A DNA stretch of 64,000 nucleotides, taken from positions 18,005 through 82,004 of the forward strand of contig SVIR01000002.1 in assembly GCA_015069395.1 (NCBI GenBank), given 5' to 3'. Each line of letters opens with the position of its first letter. Positions within the stretch are counted from its first letter, which is position 1. A program made the translations under genes and the position numbers. Under the pieces are notes generated by a model. That model was not told the DNA's origin. It did not search any database and saw nothing but the letters and a program-made list of their open reading frames with translations. This document shows, piece by piece, positions 5,211-24,292 of this stretch. The DNA comes from Clostridiales bacterium. GTDB taxonomy: Bacteria > Bacillota > Clostridia > Christensenellales > UBA1242.

Positions 5211-6653
5211 TTAAATTTCGATTTCGTCAATAGATTGAAACAATGAATTTGCCTCTTCTTTTGTGTAACTTCTTCCCGTAGAGAAACTTGATTTCTTTTC
5301 TTTTGGACTAACTATATTAAACGATGTTTTGGCATCTTCAATAGTTTTGATATTCTTATCATTAAAAGAAGCCAATATTGTTGAAAGATATTGCATTGGT
5401 TGATCTTTTCCGACTGCCAACGAACAAGCATATTCGACAAGTTCGTCAGAAAAAAGCCAAACGTCTTTCCAGATTTTGTATTTGTCCCTATCATATTGGT
5501 TGACGTTTCTAGAGAGTCCAACGCTTTCAAGAATCGCTTTTATTTTTTTGTCTTTGACCAAGACTTCGTCAAAATATTCAGCAAGAGCATTTTCGCTCAA
5601 AATTCCCATCTTATGGAATTTTGCAAGAACTCTATCCATTCCGTCTAAAGAACGAACGTTTGTCTTAAAACAAAAATTTGAAACTTCTTCTAGCATTTTT
5701 TCAGAAAAACCCATATTAAGCCAATTGAAAACATAATTGTCAATGACGGGTTCGAGGTTTTCATAATATAGTCCCAAGTTTTTGAGAAGGCAGGTGGTGA
5801 TTTTGAATATGTTTTTCTTTTCTTCTTCGAAAGTTTTAATTTCGTCAATAGAGAAGAGTTTGAGTGAAAAATATTTGTCCAATTGTTTGTCGATCGCTTC
5901 GAAAACAAAGTTTTTTCCTTTGCATTTTTTTGCAACAAACTCGACAATTTCGAGATCAAATCCTTGGTTGACAACCCACTTTTTAAAGAGTTCAAGTTCG
6001 TCAACATTTAATGCTCTCTTCAGGCCCAAAGATTTAATTAGTCCTTCGGTTTCTCCATACAAGCCTTCAATTTCACTAATCTTTTCTTCAATTTGTTTTG
6101 CTGTCGTGATTTTTTTGTTCGCCCAATCTTTTGCTATTGTAGAAATATAAGCATAGCTGACATTATTCCCTTTGACTTTCACGCAATAGCCGATTATCAT
6201 TAAAAGCCCTTCTTTTTCGATATGTAAACGTTCAACAAGATCATAATATTCTCTATATTCGTTTGGCGTAATCATTCTTCCATTTAGGATTTCTTGGGCT
6301 TGAGTATTGAAATTTACATATTTTTTCTCATTGTATTTTTTGTAGTTGTTCAAAACGTCAGTTATAGGCAAATATCTTACCTCAAAAGGAATCACGTTCA
6401 AGATATGAACAAGCCCTTGTTCGCTCCAGTAAGCAAAAGCTTTTTCGATTTCTTCAGTTGACAAGTGAAGTTCGTTTGCAAAATTTTCGATTGTGTTGTC
6501 TTTACTGTTCGAGTCCTGACACTTATATAGACCATAAAGATAAACCTTTACAAACATAGGGTCTGCATATGGGAGATAATTGTTGATAAAGATATTGTCA
6601 ACAGCTGTTGTATTGTTTGCTAACATATCAAAAGAATATTTACAAAAAGCCAT
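5211..6653 (-). CDS. DnaD-domain replication initiation / membrane attachment protein (B. subtilis DnaB-like)
   Basis: About 480 aa, helical, positioned immediately upstream of dnaI. I placed the start at ATG 6653, preceded by AGGAGGG. The tracked upstream extension to 6731 has no SD. Confidence 0.65.
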   Translation of the reverse strand: MAFCKYSFDMLANNTTAVDNIFINNYLPYADPMFVKVYLYGLYKCQDSNSKDNTIENFANELHLSTEEIEKAFAYWSEQGLVHILNVIPFEVRYLPITDVLNNYKKYNEKKYVNFNTQAQEILNGRMITPNEYREYYDLVERLHIEKEGLLMIIGYCVKVKGNNVSYAYISTIAKDWANKKITTAKQIEEKISEIEGLYGETEGLIKSLGLKRALNVDELELFKKWVVNQGFDLEIVEFVAKKCKGKNFVFEAIDKQLDKYFSLKLFSIDEIKTFEEEKKNIFKITTCLLKNLGLYYENLEPVIDNYVFNWLNMGFSEKMLEEVSNFCFKTNVRSLDGMDRVLAKFHKMGILSENALAEYFDEVLVKDKKIKAILESVGLSRNVNQYDRDKYKIWKDVWLFSDELVEYACSLAVGKDQPMQYLSTILASFNDKNIKTIEDAKTSFNIVSPKEKKSSFSTGRSYTKEEANSLFQSIDEIEI

Positions 6654-6772
6654 AATCCCTCCTGTGCAATCTTTGTAAAAAGTTTGTTTTGTCAAATTAT
6701 GATAACACAAAAGGTTTAATTTTTCAACCATTTTAAAAGAATGTTTGCCTTGAATTGTGAATAAGGTATTAT

Positions 6773-8215
6773 ATGAAAAAATTGTGGTTGGTTTTGGTAT
6801 TGATTGTTCCGTTCTTCTTCTTTGGATGTGAAAGCGAAGAAATATTTTCTACGTATAATATTTGTGCTGAATATGACAAAGAAAACAATCAACTGAATTG
6901 TCAGCAAGAAGTTGATTATGTAAACAATTCTTCTAATATATTAAATAAAGTCTGCTTTTTTCTTTACGCAAATGCTTTTGACGAAGATCAGAAACCCGTA
7001 TCGGTATCTAGTCATTCAAAAGCATATTACAATGGCGAAAGTTATGGAAATATAACAGTTGAATCGGCTTTTGTGAATGGAGCAGAAGCCATATTTGAAA
7101 TTTCTGAAGCTAAAAATGTGTTAACAATAGAACTTCAAGAAGAGCTATTCCCAAACGAAATTGTTGAAATTGAAATAACTTATCAAATTAATTTAGCAAA
7201 TATCAATCATAGACTGGGGAGAGGAGAAAACACAATAAATTTTGGAAACTTCTTTCCAAGGGCTTTGGTGTATGAAGATGGAGAAGGGTTTATAGAGCAA
7301 AAACTTGTTGCAAATGGAGACCCCTTTTATAGTGATATTTCAAATTATCAGGTAGAGCTAACCTTTGACCAGTGTTTTGATTTGGCAAGCACAGGCACAT
7401 TTGAAATTGAACTAAACGGAGATAAAAAAACAGCTTTTTGTAAAGCTGAAAAAGTAAGAGATTTTTGTTTTGTTTTATCTGAAAAATTTGATGTTTTATC
7501 GCAAGATTGCAATGGGGTGCAAGTAAATTATTTTTATTATGACGAAGAAGAGCCACAAAGTAGACTGCAAACATGTGTAGATGCTTTAAGGACGTTTGAA
7601 ACTTTGTATGGTGAATACCCTTACAAACAACTAAGTGTTGTAAAAAGCAGTTTTTGTTATGGAGGTATGGAATATCCCAATCTGGTTTTGATTTCTGACG
7701 ATCTTGAGGAAATGGATATGGATTATGTTATAGTGCATGAAATAGCACATCAATGGTGGTATTCCGTGGTAGGAAACAATCAATATGACGAGGCTTGGCT
7801 TGACGAGAGCGTTACTGAATTTTCAACAATGATGTTTTATGCAAAAAACGAAGGTTACGGAGTTGATTATCAAACACTGATTAACAATGCAAAAGAAAAT
7901 TATGTGCGTTTTGTTGAGATTTTCTCTGATATTAAAGGAGATGTAGATCAATCTATGAACAGGTCTTTAGACGAATTTAAAACTGAACCTGAATATGTAA
8001 ATTGTGTTTATGTTAAAGGAGTGTTGTTGTATGATAGTTTAAGAGATGTTTTGGGTGAAAAAAAACTATTGAAATGTCTTAAGTCTTATTTCGAACAGTA
8101 TTCTTATAAAAATGCGAAAACAGAAGATTTGATTCATGTATTTTCTAAAACTTCTAAAATAAACCTGCAAGCGTATTTTGATTCTTGGTTAAATGGATCG
8201 GTCGTAATTGAATAG
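6773..8215 (+). CDS. M1-family zinc metallopeptidase, lipoprotein
   Basis: Lipobox FFFFGC, GxMEN-like motif GGMEYP, and HEIAHQWWY followed 18 residues later by WLDESVTEF (HExxH-18-E). Confidence 0.8.
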   Translation: MKKLWLVLVLIVPFFFFGCESEEIFSTYNICAEYDKENNQLNCQQEVDYVNNSSNILNKVCFFLYANAFDEDQKPVSVSSHSKAYYNGESYGNITVESAFVNGAEAIFEISEAKNVLTIELQEELFPNEIVEIEITYQINLANINHRLGRGENTINFGNFFPRALVYEDGEGFIEQKLVANGDPFYSDISNYQVELTFDQCFDLASTGTFEIELNGDKKTAFCKAEKVRDFCFVLSEKFDVLSQDCNGVQVNYFYYDEEEPQSRLQTCVDALRTFETLYGEYPYKQLSVVKSSFCYGGMEYPNLVLISDDLEEMDMDYVIVHEIAHQWWYSVVGNNQYDEAWLDESVTEFSTMMFYAKNEGYGVDYQTLINNAKENYVRFVEIFSDIKGDVDQSMNRSLDEFKTEPEYVNCVYVKGVLLYDSLRDVLGEKKLLKCLKSYFEQYSYKNAKTEDLIHVFSKTSKINLQAYFDSWLNGSVVIE

Positions 8216-8218
8216 CAA

Positions 8219-8248
8219 CAAAAAAAACAGCCGTTTTGGCTGTTTTTT
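8219..8248. terminator. Bidirectional terminator
   Basis: A-run, stem ACAGCC/GGCTGT, then a T-run, between convergent genes. Confidence 0.6.
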
Positions 8249-9431
8249 ATTTATAATTGTTTATAATGTTTGGCTTTAAACCTTTCTTCTTACAGTCAAA
8301 GTCTTTGTCCCAATCTTTAATTGCTTGTTCAAACATCTCAATATAAAAAGGCATACTTTTTTCGATAGTAAATTTATGAGCGTGTTGTTCTACTGCTTTA
8401 CGTTCGGCTTTGAGTTCTTCTGGGTGTTCAATCCACCAGTCAATCTTTTCGGCCAAATCTTTGTAATCGCCGTGCTTAAACAAACTTTTTTCATGAACTG
8501 TAAATTGAGGTGTGGCGCTCTTTGGGCTGTCTCCAACCAAAGCAGGACAACCACAAGCGATCGCTTCAATACAGCTCATTCCTTCAACTTCTATATCAGC
8601 CGGGTGAATATACAAGTCTGCATAATTGAAGAGCGATACGAGTTGTTCTCTTGTGAAGAATGAAAAAACAGGATAATTTGGAAGTTTTTTAGCCGTTTTC
8701 ATTATATGTTTTTTAGTAGGGCCTTTTCCACCGAAAACAAGTTGGATTTTGTCTCGATATTTGCTGGCATTTACTGCCTTAATAATAAGATCGTGTCTTT
8801 TTTCTCTTGAAAATCTGCCAATGAAAGTAATCAAAAATTTGTCTTTATATTCTTCAGGGCGAACGGATTCTTGAACTTTGAAAATGTCGTTGTATCCATT
8901 TGAAATCACGTGCATATTACAATTGTATTTGTGTTTTTCGAGTTGTTTGGCTATCATTAGAGAAGGCGTATGGATATGTTTTGCGTATCTATAAACCTTG
9001 TTTTTAAAGCTTGACCAAAGACAACCGTTCACAAGTTTTGATTTGTTTAAATACAGGGTAGAAGTAATGTTTTCTGGAGCTAGATGGAATGCTGCAGAAA
9101 ATGGTACGTTCATTTCTCTACAAAGCTGAATAGTTTTTTGTTCGAGTTTAAATGGTAAATAAACGTGAACAATATCTGCTCCCGTTATTGCTTTTTTCAA
9201 GATCTCTTTATCAAACTTTGCAAATTGAAAGCCTTGAGAGTTGATAATTTTCGTTATGGTTTTTCCAAAATATCTTTCCTTAAGAGAGTAGATAGAATTG
9301 TTTGATTCGTCAATAGAAACAACTCTAACAGTATGTCCCAATTTAACCAATCCATTATAAAATCTTTGAGCAGAGATGCTCGTTCCGTGATTGTTTTGCC
9401 AAAACTGATCTGTAACTAATGTGATAACCAT
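8247..9431 (-). CDS. Glycosyltransferase family 4 (GT-B, retaining type)
   Basis: The N-terminal half is a Rossmann fold and the C-terminal half carries the EX7E region EGMSCIEAIACGCP. I moved the start to ATG 9431 (MVITLVTDQF). Confidence 0.75.
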   Translation of the reverse strand: MVITLVTDQFWQNNHGTSISAQRFYNGLVKLGHTVRVVSIDESNNSIYSLKERYFGKTITKIINSQGFQFAKFDKEILKKAITGADIVHVYLPFKLEQKTIQLCREMNVPFSAAFHLAPENITSTLYLNKSKLVNGCLWSSFKNKVYRYAKHIHTPSLMIAKQLEKHKYNCNMHVISNGYNDIFKVQESVRPEEYKDKFLITFIGRFSREKRHDLIIKAVNASKYRDKIQLVFGGKGPTKKHIMKTAKKLPNYPVFSFFTREQLVSLFNYADLYIHPADIEVEGMSCIEAIACGCPALVGDSPKSATPQFTVHEKSLFKHGDYKDLAEKIDWWIEHPEELKAERKAVEQHAHKFTIEKSMPFYIEMFEQAIKDWDKDFDCKKKGLKPNIINNYK

Positions 9432-9555
9432 AATTAAATCCTTTTTTTTAGTGCTTAATAACATTCTATCATATAAAAAAGAATTTTCAAAATAAATTTA
9501 AAAAATTTTAATTAAAGATTGTATCGAAAGTTCGTAATATGATTTTTTAAACAAG

Positions 9556-9568
9556 CTCGTGACACGAG
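9556..9568. promoter_or_regulatory. Perfect palindrome CTCGTG-A-CACGAG abutting a -35 box (candidate operator)
   Basis: Read directly from the sequence. It ends 3 nt before the TTGACT at 9572. Confidence 0.4.
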
Positions 9569-9571
9569 TTC

Positions 9572-9600
9572 TTGACTATTAGGCTTTTTTATGTTATTAT
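9572..9600 (+). promoter_or_regulatory. Sigma-A type promoter of the small-ORF/PIN cassette
   Basis: TTGACT-N17-TATTAT. The tracked ORF start at 9572 is the TTG of this -35 box. Confidence 0.55.
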
Positions 9601-9619
9601 AAATATAACTGGAGGAAAA

Positions 9620-9766
9620 ATGGATAAACAAATTAAAAAAGACCTTGATGCCAGAATCTCAAAAATGAATGAAACTGAAAGAAAACAATATATTGTAGAT
9701 TCTTTGCAAGAACTAGAAGCTTTTGCTCAAGAAACAAAATGTAAAAGGCATAAGTTTAAGGTGTGA
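9620..9766 (+). CDS. 48-aa charged helical protein, candidate antitoxin/partner of the PIN-like gene
   Basis: The ATG lies behind GGAGG (9611-9615). The product is MDKQIKKDLDARISKMNETERKQYIVDSLQELEAFAQETKCKRHKFKV. Its stop overlaps the next gene's start (GTGTGA). Confidence 0.5.
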   Translation: MDKQIKKDLDARISKMNETERKQYIVDSLQELEAFAQETKCKRHKFKV

Positions 9767-10536
9767 GTATGAAAGAGAATGCAAAAACCAAAAGAAAACC
9801 TTTTTATCTTGCAATTGACAGTGATTTTTTAAGAAGTTTCTCTTATTTCTTAGGAGGGAAAGATTCCCTAGAAGAAAAGAAGAGAAGAGATGTAAACATT
9901 AGAAACAATTATGGCTATTTTGGACATATTAAAGATTTGATGGAGGGAGACTTTGTTAGATTTGTTGTTACGCCTACAGTATTTCAAGAAGTAAAACATG
10001 GAGAATCATTTAAAAATTTTATCTCAAAACATTGTATAGTTCCTCAAATTAATCCTGAAAACTATCAGAGATATTCAAACAAAGTCAATGAATTGGCAGA
10101 GGCTTATTGCACAGAAACAAGTTATGTAGAAGACCACGTGGCAGCGCCAATGCATTTAAACTATGTGGCAGCAATTGGCAAATATGTGCCTACAAATGAT
10201 GCATTTATTATGGCAGAGGCGACTGTGTTGGGTTTATCTTTATTGACTTGCAATGTAAATGACTTTTTGCAAAGCAGGATATGGAGAGAAAGAGCTGAAA
10301 AGAGCAAGTTTGAATATGGAAACGATATTGCTAAAGGAATTTCAATTATAAATAAAAAATACCATTATGTTTTTGATAGCACATCTGAAGAATCTGTTTT
10401 TTCTATTCCTACACCTTTGGCGCCTTATTTACTTTGCAATTTAACAAAAACCACAAAAAAGGTTGCAGAATTTAGCACTCCAGTCCCTATTATAGACGAA
10501 AATGGAAAACTAGATGCAAAAGAACTTGAAAGATAA
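9763..10536 (+). CDS. PIN-like domain protein with C-terminal extension
   Basis: Acidic and polar positions are spaced like a PIN fold: LAIDSDF, TPTVFQEVKH, TNDAFIMAEA, LLTCNVNDF. An uncharacterised tail of about 80 aa follows. Confidence 0.55.
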   Translation: MSMKENAKTKRKPFYLAIDSDFLRSFSYFLGGKDSLEEKKRRDVNIRNNYGYFGHIKDLMEGDFVRFVVTPTVFQEVKHGESFKNFISKHCIVPQINPENYQRYSNKVNELAEAYCTETSYVEDHVAAPMHLNYVAAIGKYVPTNDAFIMAEATVLGLSLLTCNVNDFLQSRIWRERAEKSKFEYGNDIAKGISIINKKYHYVFDSTSEESVFSIPTPLAPYLLCNLTKTTKKVAEFSTPVPIIDENGKLDAKELER

Positions 10537-10557
10537 AAAGCCGCAAGGCTTTTTTTA
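10536..10557 (+). terminator. Rho-independent terminator
   Basis: Stem AAAGCC/GGCTTT with loop GCAA, followed by a T-run. Confidence 0.65.
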
Positions 10558-10637
10558 TTAAATTGAACAAAAAAGCAATAAACAAAAGTTGCAAATTTAG
10601 TTTCTTGTATAAAATTATCAGAATGTTGAATTTTTTG

Positions 10638-10667
10638 TTGACAAGATTCAGTATTTTGGTTTAAAAT
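10638..10667 (+). promoter_or_regulatory. Sigma-A type promoter of the XRE/RSH/TGase-like operon
   Basis: TTGACA-N18-TAAAAT. Confidence 0.5.
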
Positions 10668-10692
10668 AACAACACCATGAGTGAGGTGTGTT

Positions 10693-11652
10693 ATGAGCAA
10701 TTTTCAAAAAAATCTTAAAAAATTGGCAGACAAATATACTCAAAAGTACATTGCAGAACAAACGGGTTTTTCGCAATCAAGCATAAACAATTATCTTACA
10801 AAATCAAGCGAGCCGTCTATACAGTTTCTGATAGCATTAAAAAATGCCTTCGGAATCTGTTTGGACGACTTTTTATTTTCTGAAATGGAGGATAGTGAAG
10901 ATATTTCCTATGAAAGATTTATAGGGAATTATATTGTTTATTATTACAACAACAATGCTTACAAGGGAGAGATACATAGCAATTTGAGCAACACTTTGAA
11001 TTATGGTGTTGTAAGCATCATAAAAGAAGGAGTAAACAAAAATGTTGTGGTATATGGAACCTTCTTGAAAGAAAAATCTGAAGCCGTAAAACTTTTAAAA
11101 AGAGTTAATGCAACTAAAAATTCTACAGAAATTTTAGAAGAACATAAAAAATACAACAATCTTTATAAGGGAACGTTGAATTATAACCAACAAAGTATTT
11201 TTATAGAGCTTGGTAGCAAATCTAAGGGAGATCAAAGTTATATGATTTTCAACAATCCACCATCAAATAATGATTATATAGGTGGTGTTGGAACGGTTAA
11301 TACAGTTGCTAGAGGAAGAGAACACAACCCTTGTGTTGAGTTTATCATTATTTCAAAAAAATTGATAGATAAGCCAGACGGAGAACTTTATAAATGTCTT
11401 AAGTTTGACGATTTCAGTGTAAATTTTGACAACGCCATTTCAGATTTAGTAGAGCTGTTTAAGAGATTATTTGTTGAAAACAATGAGATTTCAACAAACT
11501 TGTTAGAGAACCAAAAATATGCAATCATACAAAACAAATTTGAGTTTATTTTTAATGAAATTGTACAGGCGAATTTGTTTAGATTTGCCAAGATTTCAAA
11601 CAAAGAGGACGACACAATCTATAAACTCATTAAGGAGGGAATAGATGTTTGA
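10693..11652 (+). CDS. XRE-family HTH protein with unrecognised C-terminal domain of about 250 aa
   Basis: N-terminal HTH YIAEQTGFSQSSINNYLTKSSEPSIQFLIALKNAFG. The start is ATG 10693, behind GAGGTG. The C-terminal part looks beta-rich and ends in helices. Confidence 0.75.
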   Translation: MSNFQKNLKKLADKYTQKYIAEQTGFSQSSINNYLTKSSEPSIQFLIALKNAFGICLDDFLFSEMEDSEDISYERFIGNYIVYYYNNNAYKGEIHSNLSNTLNYGVVSIIKEGVNKNVVVYGTFLKEKSEAVKLLKRVNATKNSTEILEEHKKYNNLYKGTLNYNQQSIFIELGSKSKGDQSYMIFNNPPSNNDYIGGVGTVNTVARGREHNPCVEFIIISKKLIDKPDGELYKCLKFDDFSVNFDNAISDLVELFKRLFVENNEISTNLLENQKYAIIQNKFEFIFNEIVQANLFRFAKISNKEDDTIYKLIKEGIDV

Positions 11653-13084
11653 AAAAATAGACGATAGATTTGATTTGATCAGACAGCAATTTTTAAAAAA
11701 TGGACTCTCCGTTGATATGATTGAAAAAGCTTATGGGTTAGCAAAAAAACTGCATAAAGATCAAATAAGAAAAGATGGGACTCCTTATCTTGCGCACCCG
11801 GTTGAAGTGGCGATAATTTTAGCAAAATTGGGGTTTGATGAAGATGTAATAAGTGCTTGCTTGTTGCATGATGTTGTAGAAGATTGTGGTTATACTGTAG
11901 ACGAAATAGGCAAAGAATTTAACAAAAATGTAGCAGAAATGGTTGATTGTGTAAGTGCCATTGACAAAGAGAAGTATATTTTTGACAAAGACGATGTTTA
12001 TGAAAGTGAAGATTTTGAAAAAGCATCTATAGAAGAGCAATCTTTTAAAAAGCTTATTGCAATTGGCAAAAAAAATCCAAAAGGTTTTTGTATAAAGTTT
12101 GCAGATAGACTTCACAACTTAAGGACCATTGAGTGTTTTGATTATGGCAAACAACTTGAAAAGGTTAAGGAAACCGAAAAGTGGATTATTCCAATTGCAA
12201 AAATTTTAAATGCAGAATATTTTTATAGGTCTTTAAAAAACGAATGTTTTAAAATTGTTCACAGATATGACGGACAAGAGTTTTTTGAATTATATTCAAA
12301 TTTTCATAATGCAAATGCAAAAAACATCGAATCTTTGCTTGAAAAGTTTAATGAAGTATTTTTAAACACACCAATAAAAACGATCAAAATAAAACCCGTA
12401 AGGGAGTATAAAGTTTTTCAAGATTTACAAAAAATCTTGAAGAATTTGAACATCTCAAAAGTTTCACAAGGACAAATTTTGAAAGTGACAAATTTCAATA
12501 TATATTTATTGTATGACAATGTAAAATACAGAGAAATAATTGGTGAGATTGTCAATCGATTAAACAACAAGTTTAGCAAAATAAAGATTATTGATGCGAA
12601 GGTTGGAAGTTTTACAAACAAACCGTATTTTCAGTTGCAAGACGATATTAAAACAAAATTTAATCTTTATGTAATGTCGCATTATGATTATGCTATTCAA
12701 AGAAATGGAACATTGGACGGGCAAGTAAATTATCTTATTGACGAAGACAATCTCGACAGTCTAGAAACCGAACTTATCAAAGTTAAGACCCGTTCAGGAG
12801 AGGTTAAGTACATTGCAAAAGGAAGCACGGTTTTGGACTTTGCTTTTAAAATTCACAAAGACATTGGCTTTGGTTTTAAATATGCGATAATAAACAATTC
12901 AAAGACAAAGTCACCACCTTATACAAAATTGATTGAAGGGGATCAAATCGAAGTTTTTGTTGAAAGAGATTCAAACGGAAAAATCAAAAACAATGCAGAT
13001 CTTAAATGGTTTGCATATGTAAACACAGATTTAGCTAAAAAAGTTTTAATTAAAAATTTTCAAGAAGTGATGTCTAAAAAATAA
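11645..13084 (+). CDS. Truncated long RelA/SpoT homologue: HD hydrolase + degenerate synthetase-like region + TGS
   Basis: HD motifs HKDQIRKDGTPYLAHP, LLHDVVEDC and FADRLHNLRT are present, as is the TGS segment IKVKTRSGEVKYIAKGSTVLDFAFKIH...IEGDQIEV. The ATG is preceded by AAGGAGGGA and overlaps the XRE gene's stop by 8 nt. Confidence 0.8.
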   Translation: MFEKIDDRFDLIRQQFLKNGLSVDMIEKAYGLAKKLHKDQIRKDGTPYLAHPVEVAIILAKLGFDEDVISACLLHDVVEDCGYTVDEIGKEFNKNVAEMVDCVSAIDKEKYIFDKDDVYESEDFEKASIEEQSFKKLIAIGKKNPKGFCIKFADRLHNLRTIECFDYGKQLEKVKETEKWIIPIAKILNAEYFYRSLKNECFKIVHRYDGQEFFELYSNFHNANAKNIESLLEKFNEVFLNTPIKTIKIKPVREYKVFQDLQKILKNLNISKVSQGQILKVTNFNIYLLYDNVKYREIIGEIVNRLNNKFSKIKIIDAKVGSFTNKPYFQLQDDIKTKFNLYVMSHYDYAIQRNGTLDGQVNYLIDEDNLDSLETELIKVKTRSGEVKYIAKGSTVLDFAFKIHKDIGFGFKYAIINNSKTKSPPYTKLIEGDQIEVFVERDSNGKIKNNADLKWFAYVNTDLAKKVLIKNFQEVMSKK

Positions 13085-13100
13085 TTATAAGGAGAGTTTA

Positions 13101-13649
13101 ATGTTTAATAAGCTTAATATTAAAACCCCTCAAGACTTAATGCAATATTTTAAAGACAATCTCAATTATGGGTTTGTTTATAGAAAGCAAAAATTTACAG
13201 ATATGGAACCTGATTTTCAGAAAAATATGGACAAATTGTATAAAATAAGGTTGGGTAAAGATTTTTTAAAACATAAATATGGTGTTTGTTGGGATTTTTG
13301 TGAGCTTGAAAGAACCTTTTTCTTAAAAAATAATATAGAACATCATTGTTATTTTATCGAAAGTTATATCAATCGTTCTGAAGGAGGCCCCACTCATACT
13401 TTTGCATTGTTCAAACAAAACAACAAGTGGTGTTGGTTTGAGTATAGTTGGTTTTATCATAGGGGAATATGGGAATACAATTCAAAAGAGGAGGCTTTGC
13501 AAGATATTTTATTAAAGTTTGAAAAATTTTTTGATAGAAAATTAATCAATATTAGAATATATGAGACAGCTCAAGTCAAAAAACGACTAAATGCCTTTGA
13601 ATTTGTAGAGCATTGTTTAAAAGGACAAAAGTTGGAATTGACCATTTGA
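13101..13649 (+). CDS. Transglutaminase/papain-fold-like Cys protein (hypothetical)
   Basis: Candidate Cys-His-acid order: YGVCWDFCE, PTHTFALF, WFEYSW. AAGGAGAG lies upstream and the gap after the RSH gene is 16 nt. Confidence 0.4.
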   Translation: MFNKLNIKTPQDLMQYFKDNLNYGFVYRKQKFTDMEPDFQKNMDKLYKIRLGKDFLKHKYGVCWDFCELERTFFLKNNIEHHCYFIESYINRSEGGPTHTFALFKQNNKWCWFEYSWFYHRGIWEYNSKEEALQDILLKFEKFFDRKLINIRIYETAQVKKRLNAFEFVEHCLKGQKLELTI

Positions 13650-13660
13650 ACATAGTCAGA

Positions 13661-13699
13661 AAAAAAGACTAGGAGATTTAAGTTTTCATAGTCTTTTTT
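13661..13699 (+). terminator. Operon terminator
   Basis: Stem AAAGACTA/TAGTCTTT followed by a T-run. Confidence 0.5.
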
Positions 13700-13753
13700 A
13701 TTGAATAAAATAGGCTCTAGTTACCCAGAGCCAACTTAATACGTATTTCACAA

Positions 13754-15121
13754 TCAAATATAAGAAAAAGTTATTTGAATATTTTCTGTTACGTTTTCTA
13801 TTGTATAGTAGCCATTTTCGTCTAGGCTTAATTGTTCACCATTTGCTTTTACTATCAAATTTTGTAAGTCATAATTAGGTCTAATATAAGGCAATTTAAA
13901 TGAACAATTTTTATTCTTTTCTACAATTAAAGTTTTAGCTCCTTTTGATTGATAAAGTGAGAATATATTATCATTATAGTTGTCAGAAATGATTTGGTCG
14001 TCTTGAAAGTATGTTTTTAAATAATGATAAGCAATGTATACTTCATATCCTTCAAACATCTTTAAATAGTATGTTTTTTTTGTTGCTCTGGCCAATGGTA
14101 TAAAATCCATACCACTATATAAAGGACGATAAAGTGGGAGCGTGTTGTATTCAATTCTTTTTTTATACCCCTTGTCTTCATATATCTCAAAACAATAGCC
14201 ATATCTTTTGTCGGCTTCAAAAGTAGAACGAAAATTTGGTAAAAATGTATTTTGTAACGAAGAGTATTTGTTGTCAGAATAATTATATTCTAATGTGGTG
14301 TCGAATTGATCATAATTACAATCGAAAGTAATAGAATAGTCTATATTTGTTCTATTATTAGCAACTATGGACAATATAGGACAACATATTGACAACATAC
14401 ATATTAAAATTATCGGCAAGATATAAATTTTTTTACTAACTTTTTTTGGCTCAAATTCGACAGGGGTGGAATTGTTTAGATATTTTAACTGTACAACTTG
14501 TATAATTAGAGAAACTATAATTCCTGCAAAGAAAGCAGAATAATGTCCCAAATTGCTTAACAAATCATAAGGATAAGGCTTGAAAGAGAAACCGTCAGTT
14601 CCTCCATCAAAGCACATCGCCAAATACATTAATGCTATTATTATTGCACCTAAAATAGTGTTTGTTTTATTCCTTTTGTATTTATGAAATGAAAAAATAT
14701 AATCTATAAGTATGTATGCATAACAAATATATACCAATCCAGAAGCACCGTGAAATTCTACTGAATAGCTACCAGCGGCACTAAACGCACCTTCTATAAA
14801 AGTTAAGCCTAAAACTAACAATAAAAAGTTAAATGTCCCTGTTTTTCTTTCAATATATAAACCACAAAATGAAAAACACAACATATTTAAAAGAACGTGT
14901 TGCCAATTCGAATGTTCGAAAGCATTTAAAAATACTCTAAAAATATTGCTTAAATCAAGTTTGCCATACCAAATATGTTGTCCACCAATGCCATCTGTAA
15001 AATAGTTTCCCAACAATGCAAACAATAATATATTTAAAGTAATGATGGTTAAAGTCCCTAAAAATAAATAGTTTCTACTATACCAACTTAATTTTTTGTG
15101 TTTATCGTCAACAAATTTCAT
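13754..15121 (-). CDS. Rhomboid-family intramembrane serine protease fused to a C-terminal extracytoplasmic domain of about 200 aa
   Basis: Motifs HSNWQHVLLNM, catalytic HGASGLVY and downstream LGHYSAFFAGI. An extra TM segment follows, then a Tyr/Asn-rich domain. Confidence 0.8.
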   Translation of the reverse strand: MKFVDDKHKKLSWYSRNYLFLGTLTIITLNILLFALLGNYFTDGIGGQHIWYGKLDLSNIFRVFLNAFEHSNWQHVLLNMLCFSFCGLYIERKTGTFNFLLLVLGLTFIEGAFSAAGSYSVEFHGASGLVYICYAYILIDYIFSFHKYKRNKTNTILGAIIIALMYLAMCFDGGTDGFSFKPYPYDLLSNLGHYSAFFAGIIVSLIIQVVQLKYLNNSTPVEFEPKKVSKKIYILPIILICMLSICCPILSIVANNRTNIDYSITFDCNYDQFDTTLEYNYSDNKYSSLQNTFLPNFRSTFEADKRYGYCFEIYEDKGYKKRIEYNTLPLYRPLYSGMDFIPLARATKKTYYLKMFEGYEVYIAYHYLKTYFQDDQIISDNYNDNIFSLYQSKGAKTLIVEKNKNCSFKLPYIRPNYDLQNLIVKANGEQLSLDENGYYTIENVTENIQITFSYI

Positions 15122-15212
15122 AAATTCTCCTAAATTGAGTATAACACAAACAAGTTCTATTTGTTACAAAAATTTTAGTATTTTTGACTATATAACAAAC
15201 AGAAACCATAAT

Positions 15213-15255
15213 AAAAAAAGACACCAAAATTTGCTTATAATCTGTCAAAAGTGTC
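15213..15255 (-). terminator. Possible terminator after tRNA-Lys
   Basis: On the minus strand, GACAC...GGTGTC is followed by seven T. The stem is short and the loop is long. Confidence 0.3.
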
Positions 15256-15328
15256 GTCAGATGTATTATTTGGGGTCAAACAAGTTATACTGATATAACA
15301 ATAGTAGTGCTTTTACACACATTTTAAC

Positions 15329-15404
15329 TGGTGGATTGCCAGGGGCTCGAACCCTGGACCCTTCGATTAAGAGTCGAATGCTCTACCAACTGAGCTAGCA
15401 ATCC
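15329..15404 (-). tRNA. trnK: tRNA-Lys (anticodon CTT), CCA-3' encoded
   Basis: The reverse complement GGATTGCTAGCTCAGTTGGTAGAGCATTCGACTCTTAATCGAAGGGTCCAGGGTTCGAGCCCCTGGCAATCCACCA folds as a 76-nt cloverleaf. Confidence 0.92.
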
Positions 15405-15432
15405 ATAATTTTGCACGTGAAAAACTATGTGT

Positions 15433-15461
15433 ATTATACTACACAAAAATCCTCTTGTCAA
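15433..15461 (-). promoter_or_regulatory. Consensus sigma-A promoter of tRNA-Lys
   Basis: Minus strand TTGACA-N17-TATAAT. Confidence 0.65.
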
Positions 15462-15489
15462 TTAAAATATTGAATTGATTTTAAAAATT

Positions 15490-15672
15490 TTAATCTTCAA
15501 TTTCGTTTGCAACTTCAATTTCGCCGTGCAATCTCTCAAAATCATTTAAATATCTTTTTATAGCAGTTTCGATTTCTTTGTTTTTGCTTCGCCCATTGAA
15601 ATTTGCTGTATATTTTATTTTTGACAACAAAGATTTTGGGATTCTTAAAGTGTAGCGTGGAAGGTTAGTCAT
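15490..15672 (-). CDS. Arc/MetJ-type ribbon-helix-helix DNA-binding protein
   Basis: 60 aa. YTLRIPKSLLSKIKYTANFNGRSKNKEIETAIKRYL matches the Arc-family pattern. GGAGTG lies upstream. Confidence 0.6.
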   Translation of the reverse strand: MTNLPRYTLRIPKSLLSKIKYTANFNGRSKNKEIETAIKRYLNDFERLHGEIEVANEIED

Positions 15673-15723
15673 AATTCACTCCTTGAGCAAATTTTACTAA
15701 ACTTTTAAAAAAATTACACCAAA

Positions 15724-15744
15724 GTGACGGCATAAATTCGTCAC
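15724..15744. promoter_or_regulatory. Inverted repeat GTGACG-N9-CGTCAC in the divergent RHH/alr intergenic region
   Basis: Read directly. A third GTGAC copy at 15787 coincides with the putative alr -35 box. Confidence 0.35.
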
Positions 15745-15786
15745 ATCTTATTAAAATTCGACAAAATTATGCAAAGAAATAAAGCT

Positions 15787-15816
15787 GTGACATATTTTAA
15801 TTTTTAAACCTATAAA
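15787..15816 (+). promoter_or_regulatory. Putative alr promoter
   Basis: GTGACA-N18-TATAAA, with the ATG at 15822 only 5 nt after the -10 box and no SD. Confidence 0.4.
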
Positions 15817-15821
15817 TAATT

Positions 15822-16811
15822 ATGGCGAATTTTAAAATTTTAAGCAAAGAAAATATGCTGTACAATTTAAAGAAATTTTGTTCTAAAAAAGTCTGTGCAA
15901 TGGTTAAAGCAAATGCTTATGGTCACGGTATAGAAAATGTCGTGCCCTTGATAGAAAACGAGGTAGAGTTTTTTGGAGTTTCAAGTTTAGAAGAAGCAAA
16001 ATTTGTAAGAAAATTTACAGACAAGAGAATCTTAATTTGTTCGAAAATATTGGATTTTAAAGCAACAAAAGAATTTGACATAATGATTGATAACAAAAGT
16101 GATTTAATAAAATGTTTGGAAGAAGGAAATATAAAAAATTTGCATCTCAAAATAAATTGTGGAATGAATCGCTATGGAACAAATTGTTTTTATGAACTTA
16201 GAAAAATCAATAGTCTGTTGGAAGACAACAAAGTTAAATTAAAATCAATATACACTCATTTTCACAATTTAGAAAACAGAAAAGAAACTTTTTTAAATTA
16301 TCAAAGATTTCAAGATTTAAGAGAAGAGATTTCGCAAGATACTATGATTTGTTTTGGAGGCTCGGGAACAATTAATTATCCTTTTGAGTATGATATCTTG
16401 AGATTGGGAATAGGACTATATGGTTTTGAGAATAAGAATTTGAAACCTGTTATGAGCATTAGGTCTTTTGTATCAAAAATTTTTTATGCAAAGAAATCAG
16501 ACTTTGTCGGTTATGGAAAGGTGGGGAAAGTGTATCAAGATTCTAAATTTGCAGTTGTGCCGGTTGGCTATGCAGATGGGCTGAGAAGAAACCTTAGCAC
16601 CAAGATTGAATGTTTGATTAATGGCAAAAAGTATAATTCTTTTGGCAACATTTGCATGGATTGTTTTTTTCTTGAAATTGACGAAAATGTAAAAGAGGGG
16701 GATATGGTAGAATTTGAAGATATTACATCTTTAGCGAAAAAAGCTAAAACTATAAGTTATGAAATTTTGACTGGACTTTCAAATTTTCGTGGAAAAACTA
16801 TTTTTATTTAA
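15822..16811 (+). CDS. alr: Alanine racemase (short form)
   Basis: PLP-lysine motif AMVKANAYGHG and the C-terminal motif VPVGYADG. Confidence 0.85.
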   Translation: MANFKILSKENMLYNLKKFCSKKVCAMVKANAYGHGIENVVPLIENEVEFFGVSSLEEAKFVRKFTDKRILICSKILDFKATKEFDIMIDNKSDLIKCLEEGNIKNLHLKINCGMNRYGTNCFYELRKINSLLEDNKVKLKSIYTHFHNLENRKETFLNYQRFQDLREEISQDTMICFGGSGTINYPFEYDILRLGIGLYGFENKNLKPVMSIRSFVSKIFYAKKSDFVGYGKVGKVYQDSKFAVVPVGYADGLRRNLSTKIECLINGKKYNSFGNICMDCFFLEIDENVKEGDMVEFEDITSLAKKAKTISYEILTGLSNFRGKTIFI

Positions 16812-18186: not shown

Positions 18187-21100
18187 TTATGATTTAATAA
18201 ATTTTTTTATTGTTTCAATACGTTTTTTAGCATCTTCTTTGCTTTGTTTAAGCAATTCTTCAGCCTCTTCTCCTTTCAATTCTTTTAAAGCGCTGAAACG
18301 ACTTTCGCTGTTTATAAAATCTTCATATTTGTCAAAATCGCATACGCTATCAATTGAAAGATTGTCTTCTTGTGGGTTGTATCGTAAAAGTGACCAATAG
18401 CCACATTCAACTACTCTGCGCATTTCAGTTGAGGTTTTCGACATATCGCAACCGTGATTCGTACAAGGACTATAGGCGACAATCAAACTTGGTCCGTTGA
18501 AAGCTTCAGCTTCTTTGAATGCTTTTATACATTGTGACATATTTGCACCAAGACTGACTTGTGCCACGTAACAATTTTTTGAGGCGATAGCCAAAGCAAC
18601 CAAGTCTTTTTTCTTTGTTTGTTTTCCGGCATTTGCAAATTTTGCCATCGCTCCACGAGGGGTTGATTTTGAAGCTTGACCACCCGTGTTTGAATATACT
18701 TCTGTGTCAAGAACCAAAACGTTTACATTTTCATTTCCGTTTAATATATGGTCAAGACCCCCATAACCAATATCATAAGCCCAGCCATCGCCACCAATAA
18801 TCCAAACACTTTGATTTTCATTGCTACCATATCTCGAACCCAATTTCATTCCAAGACCAAATTCGGCGTTGTCTTCAAACAATGAGTTTGCCCAAGCAGG
18901 ACCTCTTCCGTTTTCGTCTTTTAAATAAGGACAGCTTGGGTAAGAGCCTCCATAAATACTTGAACAACCAGTTGCATTTGCGATAAGCATTTTTTCTCCA
19001 AACAAAGTGGTCGCTAATCTTATATATGGCGTTTCACCGCATCCACCACAGGCACCGGAGAACCCAAAATAACTATCTTTAAATTGCAGGCCTTTTGGCA
19101 AATCTGTAGAGAAAGGAGTGTTCTTTTCGGTTTTCAATGTTTTACAGACTTGATAGTTTTTCTTTTCTTCGTCTAAGATTTCGTTTGCCATAGTCATTTC
19201 AAGAGCTTTGTTTCTTGAAGGACAGACGCTTGCGCAAACACCACATCCAGTACAATCCTCAGGGCTGACTTGAATGCGATAATAACAACCGTTCATTCCA
19301 AAAGCAGAGGCAAATTCGATTTCTTCAGGCGTTTCACCTTTCACCAAAACGGCTTTGATTGCATTGTGAGGACAGGACATTATGCATTGACCACATTGAA
19401 TACAATTTTTAGAGATCCATTTAGGAAGATGTGCTGCGAAACCTCTTTTTTCAAATTCTGCTGTGCCTTGAGGAATTTTTCCTGCCTTATCAAAGACTGA
19501 AACTGGCAATTCGTCACCATCGAGTTGTTCGATAGGTTTCATAATTGTTTGATAAAAGTCGTCTTTGATTTCTTTTTGGCTTAGCTTGATGTCTTTCATT
19601 GTAAAGGTCGAAATGTCAACTTCTTCAATTTTATCAACTGCCAAAGCAGAAGCCTTTTTGTTTTTCTCAACAACGACACTTCCTTTCTTTGCAAAAGTTT
19701 TTTCAATATACACATCAATTTGTTTTTTTGCTTCTTCAAAGTCAATAATTTGAGAAACTTTAAATAGTGCTGTTTGCATTATGATATTGATTTTGTTTCC
19801 GAGCCCAACTTCTTCAGCTATCTTTTGAGCATTGATTACAAAAAGTTGAGCATTTTTTTCTTTTAAAGTTTTCTTGTAAATATCAGGCAGGATTTTGTCT
19901 ACTTCTTCAGCAGAGAAGAAAGTGTTTATCAAAACCTTTCCGTTTTGCTTCAATCCTTTTAAACAATCGTATCTATGCACAAAAGAGAAATTGTTGATTG
20001 TAATTATATTTGGGTTTTCAACCAAATATGTGCTTCGGATTGGATTGTCGCTAACCCTTATGTGAGAACGCGTCAAACTTCCACTTTTTTTGCTGTCGTA
20101 TTCAAAATAACCTTGAACATATTTGTCAAGAGTTTCCCCTAAAATTTTGATTGTGCTTTTGCTTGCAGAAACGGTTCCGTCTGAGCCCAAGCCAAAAAAC
20201 TTCATTTCAAAGTTTTTGGTTTTTGGTTGATAATCTTCAAGTGGGAGAGAACTAAAACTTACGTCGTCATTGATTCCCACTGTAAAATTGTCTTTTTCTA
20301 TTTTAAAGTTGTCAACAATAGCTTTGACCATCGAAGGAGTGAAATCTTTTCCACCAAGACCATATCTTCCACCTAAAACCTTGATGTTTTGTCTTGCTTT
20401 TAGTGCTGTGCAAACATCTAAGAAAAGAGGGTCTCTTGCACCACATTCTTTTGTTCTATCCAACACAATGACTTTTTCAACGCTTGCGGGTAAAACGTCG
20501 GCAAACTTTTCATAGTTGAACGGACGATAGAGCCTTACATTCAAAAGAGCGACGTCTTTTGCGAGCTCTGGTTCGGTTTCTAAAAACTCTCTAATTGTTT
20601 CGCAGGAAGAGCCCATTGAAACGATAACGTTTTTAGGGTTAGAACTTCCATAAAGTTGGAAAGGCATATACTTTCTGCCTGTAACTCTATAAAAGTCGTT
20701 CATACATTTTTCAGCCATTTCATAAGCGTTGGTATATGCGGGCGTAGAAAGCTCTCTATTTTGGAAAAAGACATCAGGATTTTGAGCAGTGCCTTTTTGA
20801 TAAGGTGCAGCAGACGTCATTCGTTGATCTTTGAATTTTTTGATTTCTTTTAAAGGCATCATAGCATGAAGAGTCAAGTCGTCTTTGAGCAGTTCGATTT
20901 TTTGCAATTCGTGAGAAGTTCTAAAACCGTCAAAAAAGTGAATGACCGGCAAAGACGCACTATATGTCAACGAATGTGCAACAACTGCCATATCATAAGC
21001 CTCTTGGACTGAAGTTGACGACAACAAAATGCAACCTGTTTGTCTAGTAGCCATTACGTCACTGTGGTCTCCAAAGATTGAAAGGGCATGGGTGGCTAAA

Positions 21101-24072: not shown

Positions 24073-24078
24073 TTAGTT

Positions 24079-24292
24079 AAGTGTTTAGCAAGGGACAAGT
24101 AGTTTTTAAAACTTTGTGTACAGAGAAGAGTTGTTTGGTGAAAAACTTTGACAAATTTGAAAACGAAACCACTTTTGCGTTTGAAGATACGAAAAAAAAG
24201 AGAGGCACTTTTGTGCAATTAAGGTGGAACCGCGGTTTATAATCGTCCTTAAATTCAAGTTTATCTTGTCTTTAAGGATTTTTTGTTTTTAT
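24079..24292 (+). promoter_or_regulatory. T-box riboswitch leader (Thr specifier)
   Basis: T-box sequence AATTAAGGTGGAACCGCGG (about 24217-24236) and an AGAGA element. The candidate specifier is GAA-ACC-A at 24168-24170. The terminator is TCCTTAAA...TTTAAGGA (24247-24278) plus a T-run. Confidence 0.85.

Follow-up and report, generated by a model that had tools for sequence, protein, structure and literature searches.

The textbook complement of alarmone enzymes outside the Beta- and Gammaproteobacteria is one bifunctional Rel, plus small synthetases or hydrolases. In the Beta- and Gammaproteobacteria, the RelA/SpoT arrangement combines a long RelA/SpoT homologue (RSH) that has a dead hydrolase and a live synthetase with a hydrolytic paralogue. 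The present report concerns a gene pair that encodes an XRE-family regulator (gene 1) and a truncated long RSH (gene 2), followed by a transglutaminase-like gene (gene 3), in a 64,000-nucleotide stretch of Clostridiales bacterium DNA (GenBank assembly GCA_015069395.1, contig SVIR01000002.1, positions 18,005 to 82,004 of the forward strand), referred to below as the window.

A hydrolase-only long RSH is known from the Moraxellaceae. This protein, SpoT[Hs] (SpoT_Ab of Acinetobacter baumannii, PDB entry 7qpr; PMC9974481), shares with gene 2, as predicted from motifs and fold, an active HD site, a pseudo-synthetase (pseudo-SYNTH) domain and TGS. Its partner is a synthetase-only long RSH, as would also be the case for the gene 2 homologue of a related genome (locus L011). 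The pseudo-SYNTH, Core and TGS domains of the A. baumannii enzyme keep its HD site active (PMC9974481). Unlike gene 2, SpoT_Ab has retained HEL, ZFD and RRM domains for the allosteric activation of hydrolysis; unlike SpoT, gene 2 is translationally coupled to an XRE regulator; and as gene 2 is Clostridial and SpoT[Hs] is from the Moraxellaceae, the split of activities would be of independent origin. RshC of some Bacillus strains (Atkinson et al. 2011, PMC3153485) is likewise a second, divergent Firmicute long RSH that ends after TGS. It belongs to class [HS], with two catalytic domains that are predicted to be intact and no XRE partner described, and is set apart by this description from gene 2, in which the synthetase motifs are lost. 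The small alarmone hydrolases (SAHs; Mesh1, RelH, PaSpo/PbcSpo, ATfaRel) are also monofunctional HD-type enzymes, to which the HD fold of gene 2 matches at E ~1e-5 to 1e-3. SAHs are single-domain proteins of ~180 amino acids, and gene 2 falls outside their definition (a single HD domain) in having a pseudo-SYNTH fold and a TGS domain; since it keeps both, it is derived from a long RSH. Some SAHs act as antitoxins (PMC7229694), and some reverse pyrophosphorylation of the tRNA CCA end (bioRxiv 10.1101/2021.04.30.441581). The genome with locus L011 is like the RelA/SpoT case in containing a hydrolytic paralogue together with a long RSH whose synthetase is live and whose hydrolase is dead, and unlike it in that the hydrolase is a truncated protein with a transcription factor as its partner, the comparison being with one Clostridial genome. 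No description of a module joining an XRE regulator to an HD-TGS protein was found in full-text literature searches, in agreement with the remark in a preliminary description of the locus, made from the sequence alone, that no described system with its three-gene combination was known.

That preliminary description had presented the three genes as a self-contained operon and had considered an immunity or defence function. The reading preferred here, to which a probability of about one half is assigned, is that genes 1 and 2 encode an XRE partner and, under it, a SpoT-like enzyme dedicated to (p)ppGpp hydrolysis, and not a defence module. With it the earlier reading is corrected on two points: the locus is no longer seen as a defence cassette, and the presence of the transglutaminase-like gene is treated as incidental. 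The locus suggests that a gut Clostridia lineage split its alarmone activities in another way, into a full-length, hydrolase-dead Rel and an HD/pseudo-SYNTH/TGS hydrolase.

Domain organization of the truncated RSH

Gene 2 (11645..13084, + strand) was defined by its open reading frame (ORF), by hidden Markov model (HMM) matches and by a structural model, and encodes a truncated long RSH of predicted type [Hs] with 479 amino acids. Its layout is an HD hydrolase domain (residues ~29-205), a pseudo-synthetase domain (~240-355), a TGS domain (376-440) and a C-terminal helix. Pfam searches returned HD_4 at E = 5.8e-26 and TGS at E = 1.5e-11 (residues 378-438) and no match to the RelA_SpoT synthetase domain, for which the full-length Rel of the Candidatus Onthoplasma clade scores 1.4e-39. 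The preliminary description, which had recognized a truncated RSH with hydrolase signatures and TGS only, was right in this respect and had overlooked the degenerate synthetase domain. The HD residues H51, H75-D76, E79-D80, D154-R155 and H157-N158 are invariant in an alignment (A3) that spans 31-100% identity, and gene 2 contains the HD motifs of long RSH enzymes (HP, HD, ED and ADRLHN).

A sequence search of the PDB aligned gene 2 with the hydrolase halves of Rel/RelA (1.6e-34) and, separately, with TGS, and left the middle unaligned. When the gene 2 profile was compared with the full-length Rel of the clade using hhalign, the two were collinear (residues 147-479 against 118-466, 98.2% probability), and the positions of the synthetase motifs (the G-loop RxKxxxSxxxK, the Asp for Mg2+, and ExQIRT) were occupied by non-equivalent residues in gene 2. 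The AlphaFold2 model of gene 2 had a predicted local distance difference test score (pLDDT) of 83.5 and was disordered only in a conserved acidic insertion (110-129) and in the linker 368-374. Its best Foldseek match was the hydrolase-only A. baumannii SpoT (7qpr, 4.5e-23); Rel fragments comprising HD and SYN gave target-normalised template modelling scores (TM-scores) of 0.64-0.78 over 340-385 columns, and the small synthetase RelP (6ewz) matched more weakly (9.4e-4). Collinear with the synthetase domain, devoid of its motifs and synthetase-shaped in the model, the middle region is best described as a pseudo-synthetase, that is, a degenerate synthetase domain of which only the predicted fold is kept.

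The TGS domain keeps the sequence DFAFKIH, aligned to DFAYA(V/I)H of Rel, and its histidine aligns with the CCA-contacting histidine of RelA/Rel, which stacks on the tRNA CCA end (PMC7058999). Gene 2 has no AH/RIS, zinc-finger or ACT/RRM domains; as it stops at residue 479, ~40 residues after TGS, it is without the domains that tie Rel to the ribosome. Judged from its conserved active site, the enzyme most likely removes (p)ppGpp. The acidic insertion, KEKYIFDKDDVYESEDFEKASIEEQ, lies in the HD domain (window 11960-12031, residues ~107-129), is predicted to be disordered (pLDDT 41-45) and is conserved across the clade; it may be an interaction segment.

A complementary full-length Rel

At locus L011 a full-length Rel of 695 amino acids is encoded directly after recJ (14577-16664), 5 kb downstream of the pair. 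Its RelA_SpoT (1.4e-39), TGS, RelA_AH_RIS and ACT_4 domains are intact. Its HD region is destroyed: HP is missing, the HD..ED stretch is deleted, and KFATILYDLKL replaces KxADRLHNxRT. To judge from these sequences, this genome combines a synthetase-only long RSH with an XRE-linked, hydrolase-only RSH. The possibility, raised in the preliminary description, that gene 2 is the sole Rel of its lineage did not hold, as this Rel of canonical length lies after recJ in a related genome. A second hydrolase-dead Rel was sought at P0063, where a prophage neighbour and no recJ-rel were found.

Conservation and inheritance of the pair

Genes 1 and 2 are translationally coupled, with the Shine-Dalgarno (SD) sequence and ATG of gene 2 lying within the last codons of gene 1 (11632..11647, + strand; read directly from the sequence). 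The SD is AAGGAGGGA at 11632-11640, and the ATG overlaps gene 1 by 8 nt; in the orthologues L003, L005, L008 and L033 the overlap between the two genes is 8-14 nt according to database gene calls. Homologues of gene 2 (about 477 amino acids, 60-72% identical) and of gene 1 (about 320 amino acids, 68-81% identical) are abundant among metagenome-assembled genomes of Clostridia. The orthologue set was obtained by scanning one genome per species and comprises 19 loci from 18 genomes, mostly labelled Candidatus Onthoplasma or Clostridia bacterium; NCBI taxonomy places Candidatus Onthoplasma within Christensenellales. At every Onthoplasma-clade locus with downstream sequence, the HD-TGS gene overlaps or abuts the 3' end of the regulator gene. 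In distant branches, with 23-44% regulator identity, the next gene encodes HD_4(+TGS) in six out of six (L029, L030, L031/32, L033, L038 and L039/40), which makes the two-gene module old in comparison with the Onthoplasma clade. The conserved unit is genes 1 and 2, and not the self-contained trio first proposed: gene 3 was present in none of ~25 other neighbourhoods, the very outcome that the preliminary description had placed first among those that would speak against it.

When genomes are compared in pairs, the identities of the XRE and RSH proteins follow that of CysRS, with values such as 93/89/83% (XRE/RSH/CysRS) between L016 and L018 and 77/68/70% between L012 and L014. PolA does likewise, apart from comparisons that involve L021, where the PolA-like protein (~44% identical) may be a different paralogue. 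The regulator had no tblastn relative in phage or plasmid collections and none in IMG/VR, so that a phage or plasmid origin of the pair was rejected, and genes 2 and 3 had no match in PADLOC-DB 2.0. Since divergence is in step with CysRS, and mostly with PolA, and mobile or defence matches are lacking, the pair looks vertically inherited, strongly constrained and core-like in the Candidatus Onthoplasma clade. A patchy, accessory character of the pair did not stand for this clade, and the same results argue against the suggested immunity or defence function.

Several loci depart from the common form. The RSH at L030 has two TGS domains and 615 amino acids, and L038 and L039 have N-terminal extensions of 150-190 amino acids. 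At L030 (3201-9640) the RSH gene is followed by grpE, two Hsp70 genes, a gene for a Transglut_core protein (6.4e-7) and an AAA_2 ATPase gene, with an asparaginase gene upstream. Two XRE-RSH copies (L025 and L027) occur on contig DWVI01000002.1 of Ca. Onthoplasma faecipullorum, the sole species in which this was seen. At L041 (236-8627) the pair lies directly behind a prophage lysis end (terminase, portal, holin); a second integrase/cI/cro set is found 8 kb downstream (19101-21064), in a region missing from the sister contig L042. At L012, L015, L016 and L018 a giant ORF of 2100-2600 amino acids (cluster c9) is immediately upstream of the regulator.

The regulator and its C-terminal domain

Gene 1 (10693..11652, + strand; defined by its ORF and by orthologue alignment) encodes an XRE-family regulator of 319 amino acids. 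Its start is the ATG at 10693, behind a GAGGTG SD, and all orthologues start with MSNFQKNL; the GTG at 10681, chosen by the ORF lister, was overruled by these alignments. A helix-turn-helix (HTH) was matched by HTH_3 (PF01381) at residues 14-55 (3.6e-7, above the Pfam cut-off), and the remaining ~250 residues had no match in Pfam, NCBIfam, PADLOC or PHROGs, which bears out the earlier description of an XRE HTH joined to an unassignable domain. The HTH also gave a sub-threshold match to the RstR repressor family of NCBIfam (3.8e-7, 30.3 bits against a cut-off of 80), and PADLOC returned generic HTH matches only, at E values of at least 6e-4.

The AlphaFold2 model of gene 1 (pLDDT 89.5, predicted TM-score 0.77) consists of the HTH (residues 1-62), a region of eight beta strands plus two helices (~78-221) and a helical bundle (~229-314), in accord with the prediction that the domain is beta-rich and ends in helices. 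The HTH superposes on P22 c2, 434 Cro, SinR, ImmR and C.AhdI in Foldseek, with a root-mean-square deviation of 1.6-2.5 A for SinR, P22 c2 and 434 Cro. No PDB or BFVD fold matched the C-terminal domain at E<=1e-3. Lipocalin, FABP, NanoLuc, LolA and Cap15-like barrels were considered as relatives and set aside, as their target-normalised TM-scores were weak (0.23-0.51) and provide a lead only. Gene 1 is thus like XRE/Cro-cI regulators in its N-terminal HTH_3 and in being the first gene of its own operon, and unlike known members in that its C-terminal domain of ~250 amino acids has no family model and no solved or viral predicted structure matching at E<=1e-3.

The C-terminal domain (10900..11649, + strand; residues ~70-319) was delimited from alignments A1 and A2 as an uncharacterised family. 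Its motifs are YxGxYxxYY(F/N)(D/N)xxxYKG, YIGG(L/V)GTxN(S/T)V(S/A)xGRExxP and NxFRxxK(I/V)SxxDD in A1 and A2, and YxGxYxxYYFDTSxYKG, YIGGLGTxNSVSxGRExxP and NxFRxxKISxxDDDxWY across the 49 relatives in A2. The latter alignment, of gene 1 with these 49 relatives, was too divergent for a pattern scan. The domain persists over the whole span from 100% to 23% identity and is in every case preceded by an HTH; the N-terminal region of the 49 relatives aligns collinearly with the HTH of gene 1, and where Pfam matches had been precomputed they were to HTH families only in that region. An exhaustive HMMER search with the domain returned 227 representative clusters at E<=1e-3, of which 137 remained at E<=1e-10, and most family members have 345-400 amino acids with the domain at about residues 100-370. 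In the metagenome copy L002 (20-991) the regulator is called as two ORFs (209 and 96 amino acids), an apparent frameshift that reflects a pseudogene or an assembly error.

Genes adjacent to the pair in related genomes

The genes behind the RSH vary by locus, many of them tightly spaced, and include those for CysRS (five loci), TyrRS, a TrpRS/TyrRS-type enzyme and a tRNA-synt_2-like protein; at other loci the neighbours are unrelated. At seven loci a synthetase gene lies 10-86 nt past the RSH (CysRS at L012, L019, L016 and L018; TyrRS at L024; TrpRS/TyrRS-type at L011; tRNA-synt_2-like at L005), and an aminoacyl-tRNA synthetase (aaRS) or aaRS-like gene occurs within a few genes of the pair in eight distinct arrangements. 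Further translation genes found nearby are those for AsnRS/AspRS, IleRS, GatCAB and Sua5 and a TrmA-like gene. There is no synthetase near the pair in the window or at L008, L015, L021, L022, L025, L030 and L041. Firmicutes rel loci lie ancestrally near hisS/aspS, and the aaRS association may in part be inherited rel-hisS-aspS synteny. The synthetase and tRNA neighbours, as counted among phylogenetically related loci, are suggestive of a link to tRNA charging. At L014 (8373-12615) the order is CysRS, XRE, RSH, tRNA-Cys(GCA) ~155 nt past the RSH stop, and tRNA-Leu.

Variable clusters begin 1-28 nt past the RSH stop at L003 (9444-12426), L005 (9447-14687), L010 (12401-16506) and L013 (4770-11396). 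Their contents are an archaeal-type AdoMet synthase with an S51 peptidase; a tRNA-synt_2-like gene with radical SAM, HAD and two S51 peptidase genes; radical SAM, PIG-L and WbqC; and Polysacc_synt_2, a pyridoxal phosphate (PLP) decarboxylase, an APH-type kinase and a glycosyltransferase. A synthetase gene closes several of the inserted clusters, whose genes are of sugar- or small-molecule-modifying types, and the L027 copy of the pair is the start of a cluster of eight genes, among them HAD/PNKP-like, PLP decarboxylase, HD and radical SAM genes, with TyrRS at its end. The site just 3' of the RSH seems to be a spot where genes come and go. No terminator hairpins were found in the 1-28-nt gaps, and some of the longer gaps between RSH and synthetase genes hold promoter-like sequences.

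The synthetase genes adjacent to the pair had no T-box even at a permissive threshold. At the Rfam gathering threshold no T-box was found at all, and the notion of a lineage without T-boxes was withdrawn after the permissive scan showed a T-box leader (24077-24253, + strand) 5' of the ThrRS gene (24318-26084) in the window, with 87.8 bits against a gathering score of 93 and E = 1.1e-17.

Proposed function of the pair and alternative explanations

According to the preferred reading, gene 2 would be a hydrolase-only descendant of a long RSH Rel in which the synthetase domain was left as a scaffold, and would take the role of SpoT beside a full-length Rel by removing (p)ppGpp. Gene 1 would be made in fixed proportion with gene 2 through translational coupling, would autoregulate the shared promoter, and would sense a ligand or bind the gene 2 enzyme through its C-terminal domain, thereby setting the amount or activity of the hydrolase. 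Autoregulation and the binding of a ligand or partner are proposed because of the family of gene 1 and the coupling of the two genes; as no operator was identified 5' of gene 1, autoregulation is put forward by analogy with other XRE proteins. What the analysis shows directly is the domain content and fold of the proteins, the conservation of their motifs and of the pair, and the lack of conservation of gene 3; the substrate of gene 2, the autoregulation and a physical XRE-RSH interaction are what we infer. The core-like inheritance of the pair is as expected if a hydrolase is needed to balance a hydrolase-dead Rel. Gene 3 would be an unrelated gene that has come to lie behind the pair in this genome and rides on its transcript.

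Several observations weigh against this reading. A hydrolase-dead full-length Rel together with the pair was seen in one genome only (L011). RSH-family HD enzymes can also act on (p)ppApp, NADPH and pyrophosphorylated tRNA, and the frequent aaRS and tRNA neighbours are not accounted for by a plain alarmone hydrolase. A search for operators by a mismatch k-mer scan of 19 upstream regions gave no sequence that exceeded the shuffled controls, since any signal is drowned in the AT-rich background. In the L039/L040 branch (6001-9150) the RSH has degenerate HD motifs and an N-terminal extension of ~150 amino acids, and the pair adjoins genes for a type IV secretion coupling protein, a ClpP-type protein and an Exo_endo_phos protein, a context that is conjugative-element-like; the module is therefore not always catalytic or part of the chromosomal core. 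If the preferred reading is true, the pair is an independent natural experiment on which parts of a long RSH hydrolysis requires, adds a new regulatory partner to alarmone turnover, and supplies a defined, widely distributed domain (227 representative clusters) for which a ligand or partner can be looked for. A more far-reaching reading, which must be regarded as distinctly unlikely, is an XRE-RSH complex in which the C-terminal domain of gene 1 would replace the lost regulatory domains of the RSH in trans, and TGS-sensed uncharged tRNA or HD-bound alarmone would switch both hydrolysis and DNA binding. Such a complex would be a protein-based starvation sensor wired to transcription, including that of synthetase genes without T-boxes.

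The neighbouring translation genes bear mainly on two alternatives. The RSH might act as the sensor in a sensor-regulator complex, detecting uncharged tRNA through TGS and/or alarmone through HD and controlling DNA binding by the XRE protein, as a protein counterpart of T-box control of the downstream, often aaRS, genes. This would fit the synthetase genes 10-86 nt behind the RSH at seven loci, the lack of hairpin terminators in the 1-28-nt gaps, and the absence of T-boxes from the adjacent synthetase genes although the ThrRS gene of the window has one, as well as the nearby AsnRS/AspRS, IleRS, GatCAB, Sua5, TrmA-like and, at L014, tRNA-Cys genes; and the branch that keeps the pair with a degenerate HD site suggests that a non-catalytic role is possible. 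It is nevertheless judged unlikely. Every other member strictly conserves the catalytic residues of HD, an argument that catalysis matters; at many loci there is no synthetase gene close to the pair; several of the synthetase genes are preceded in the gap by their own promoter-like sequences; and the association, as seen among phylogenetically related loci, may partly be inherited rel synteny. The same neighbours, together with the conserved CCA-contacting histidine of TGS and the finding that some SAHs reverse tRNA CCA pyrophosphorylation (bioRxiv 10.1101/2021.04.30.441581), could be explained by tRNA-end repair, in which TGS docks the tRNA 3' CCA and HD removes a 3' pyrophosphate added by a toxSAS, guarding against those of phages, competitors or the cell's own toxin-antitoxin (TA) systems. 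A distant member does lie in a conjugative-element-like context, which would suit such a role, but it is the one with the degenerate HD site; no toxSAS gene was seen in any neighbourhood, and vertical, core-like inheritance fits housekeeping better than counter-defence. We consider repair of this kind quite improbable.

Two explanations take their cue from the compact organization of the operon. A three-gene accessory immunity or defence module, made up of an XRE sensor, an alarmone hydrolase and a transglutaminase-fold effector, would account for the single promoter, single terminator and tight spacing in this genome, and might draw on the Transglut_core protein downstream of the distant pair at L030 and on the variation by locus of the genes behind the RSH, like cargo in some defence islands. 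The L030 protein is of a different Pfam family, with no detectable similarity to gene 3, which is itself absent at every other locus and has a relative from its >=90%-identity cluster in a different setting. There are no PADLOC matches, relatives of the regulator are lacking among phages, plasmids and viruses, and the pair diverges as CysRS does and, for the most part, as PolA does. The module is therefore very unlikely. A type II TA system with an XRE antitoxin and an HD-TGS toxin has the bicistronic, overlapping, XRE-first order in its favour, as well as the fact that RSH-family proteins are known TA components (PMC7229694). With 319 and 479 amino acids the proteins are far above the size of typical TA partners, and the RSH is a hydrolase that has lost its synthetase motifs, hydrolysis being what detoxifies in known systems; more than one copy was found in one genome only, descent looks vertical, there are no plasmid or phage copies, and PADLOC gave no matches. 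A TA system is considered extremely improbable.

Transcription signals and the downstream gene

The three genes are co-oriented and tightly packed between one strong promoter and one terminator. A scan identified a sigma-70-type promoter (10638..10667, + strand) with TTGACA (10638-10643), an 18-nt spacer and TAAAAT (10662-10667), which matches at 11/12 positions and has the top promoter score in the 4.6 kb scanned (9400-14000); the TTGACA promoter first noted at 10638 was thus recovered. A TTGAC(A/T)...TA(T/A)AAT pair, judged by eye, is present 5' of most of 17 inspected orthologous genes. An inverted repeat, ACACC-N8-GGTGT (10672-10689), lies between the -10 box and the start of gene 1 and overlaps the SD; it was not found in the orthologous leaders. 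RNA folding predicted an intrinsic terminator, an A/U-rich stem-loop followed by a U run (13656..13704, + strand), of -17.1 kcal/mol and z = -4.35, and none of 200 shuffles was as stable. The terminator proposed earlier (about 13661-13699) falls within it; the consensus terminator scan missed it because the stem is A/U-rich. The spacing of the genes was also as first described, with the 8-nt overlap and its SD AAGGAGGGA and a gap of 16 nt between genes 2 and 3, the latter preceded by the SD AAGGAG.

Gene 3 (13101..13649, + strand; ORF and PF04473) encodes a DUF553 transglutaminase-like protein of 182 amino acids. The match to DUF553 (PF04473, 'transglutaminase-like') has an E-value of 7.9e-7 and 29.1 bits, above the gathering score of 20.5, and C63, H99 and E114 are in the expected order and conserved in a 58%-identical homologue (L034), which upholds the proposed Cys...His...acid arrangement. 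Gene 3 shares this Cys63...His99...Glu114 set with the DUF553/papain-fold clan and has no conserved link to the pair; a PDB search found no solved-structure relative by sequence. It stands behind the pair only in the window and in one identical metagenome contig. A member of its >=90%-identity cluster is located elsewhere, in the order TGT, YajC, DUF4279, gene 3, ABC-F gene and MetRS, and nucleotide similarity to that copy spans 13083-13641 only, which is the ORF plus SD. As gene 3 is absent at other loci, has a relative sited elsewhere and shows similarity confined to the ORF and SD, it is a recent passenger, co-transcribed here and outside the conserved module. A link to the L030 Transglut_core protein was rejected, as there is no detectable similarity and the Pfam families differ. 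In the metagenome copy L034 (6001-6545) the 58%-identical homologue is split over two frames, an apparent frameshift that is due to a pseudogene or an assembly error.

Other features of the window

The window is ordinary chromosome of the low-GC (~32%) Clostridia type and carries gyrB/gyrA, clpC, mcsB, tex, PFOR, thrS and dnaB-type genes. The locus had been placed in an accessory-looking patch beside a PIN cassette. A GC dip is present and small (0.28 against about 0.32), and the PIN assignment had no HMM support in four libraries: upstream of the operon, an ORF of 64 amino acids overlaps one of 257 amino acids by 4 nt (9572-10536, + strand), with its own terminator at ~10537-10557, and neither matched Pfam, NCBIfam, PADLOC or PHROGs. 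The acidic-residue pattern alone, DSDF...QEV...NDAF...NVNDF, looks PIN-like by eye. This ORF pair occurs only in this genome's version of the locus. Downstream, a gene for a protein of 455 amino acids with an N-terminal rhomboid domain (13754-15121, - strand) converges on the operon terminator, and a 60-amino-acid Arc/MetJ-type ribbon-helix-helix protein (15490-15672, - strand) is encoded adjoining tRNA-Lys(CTT) at 15329-15404.

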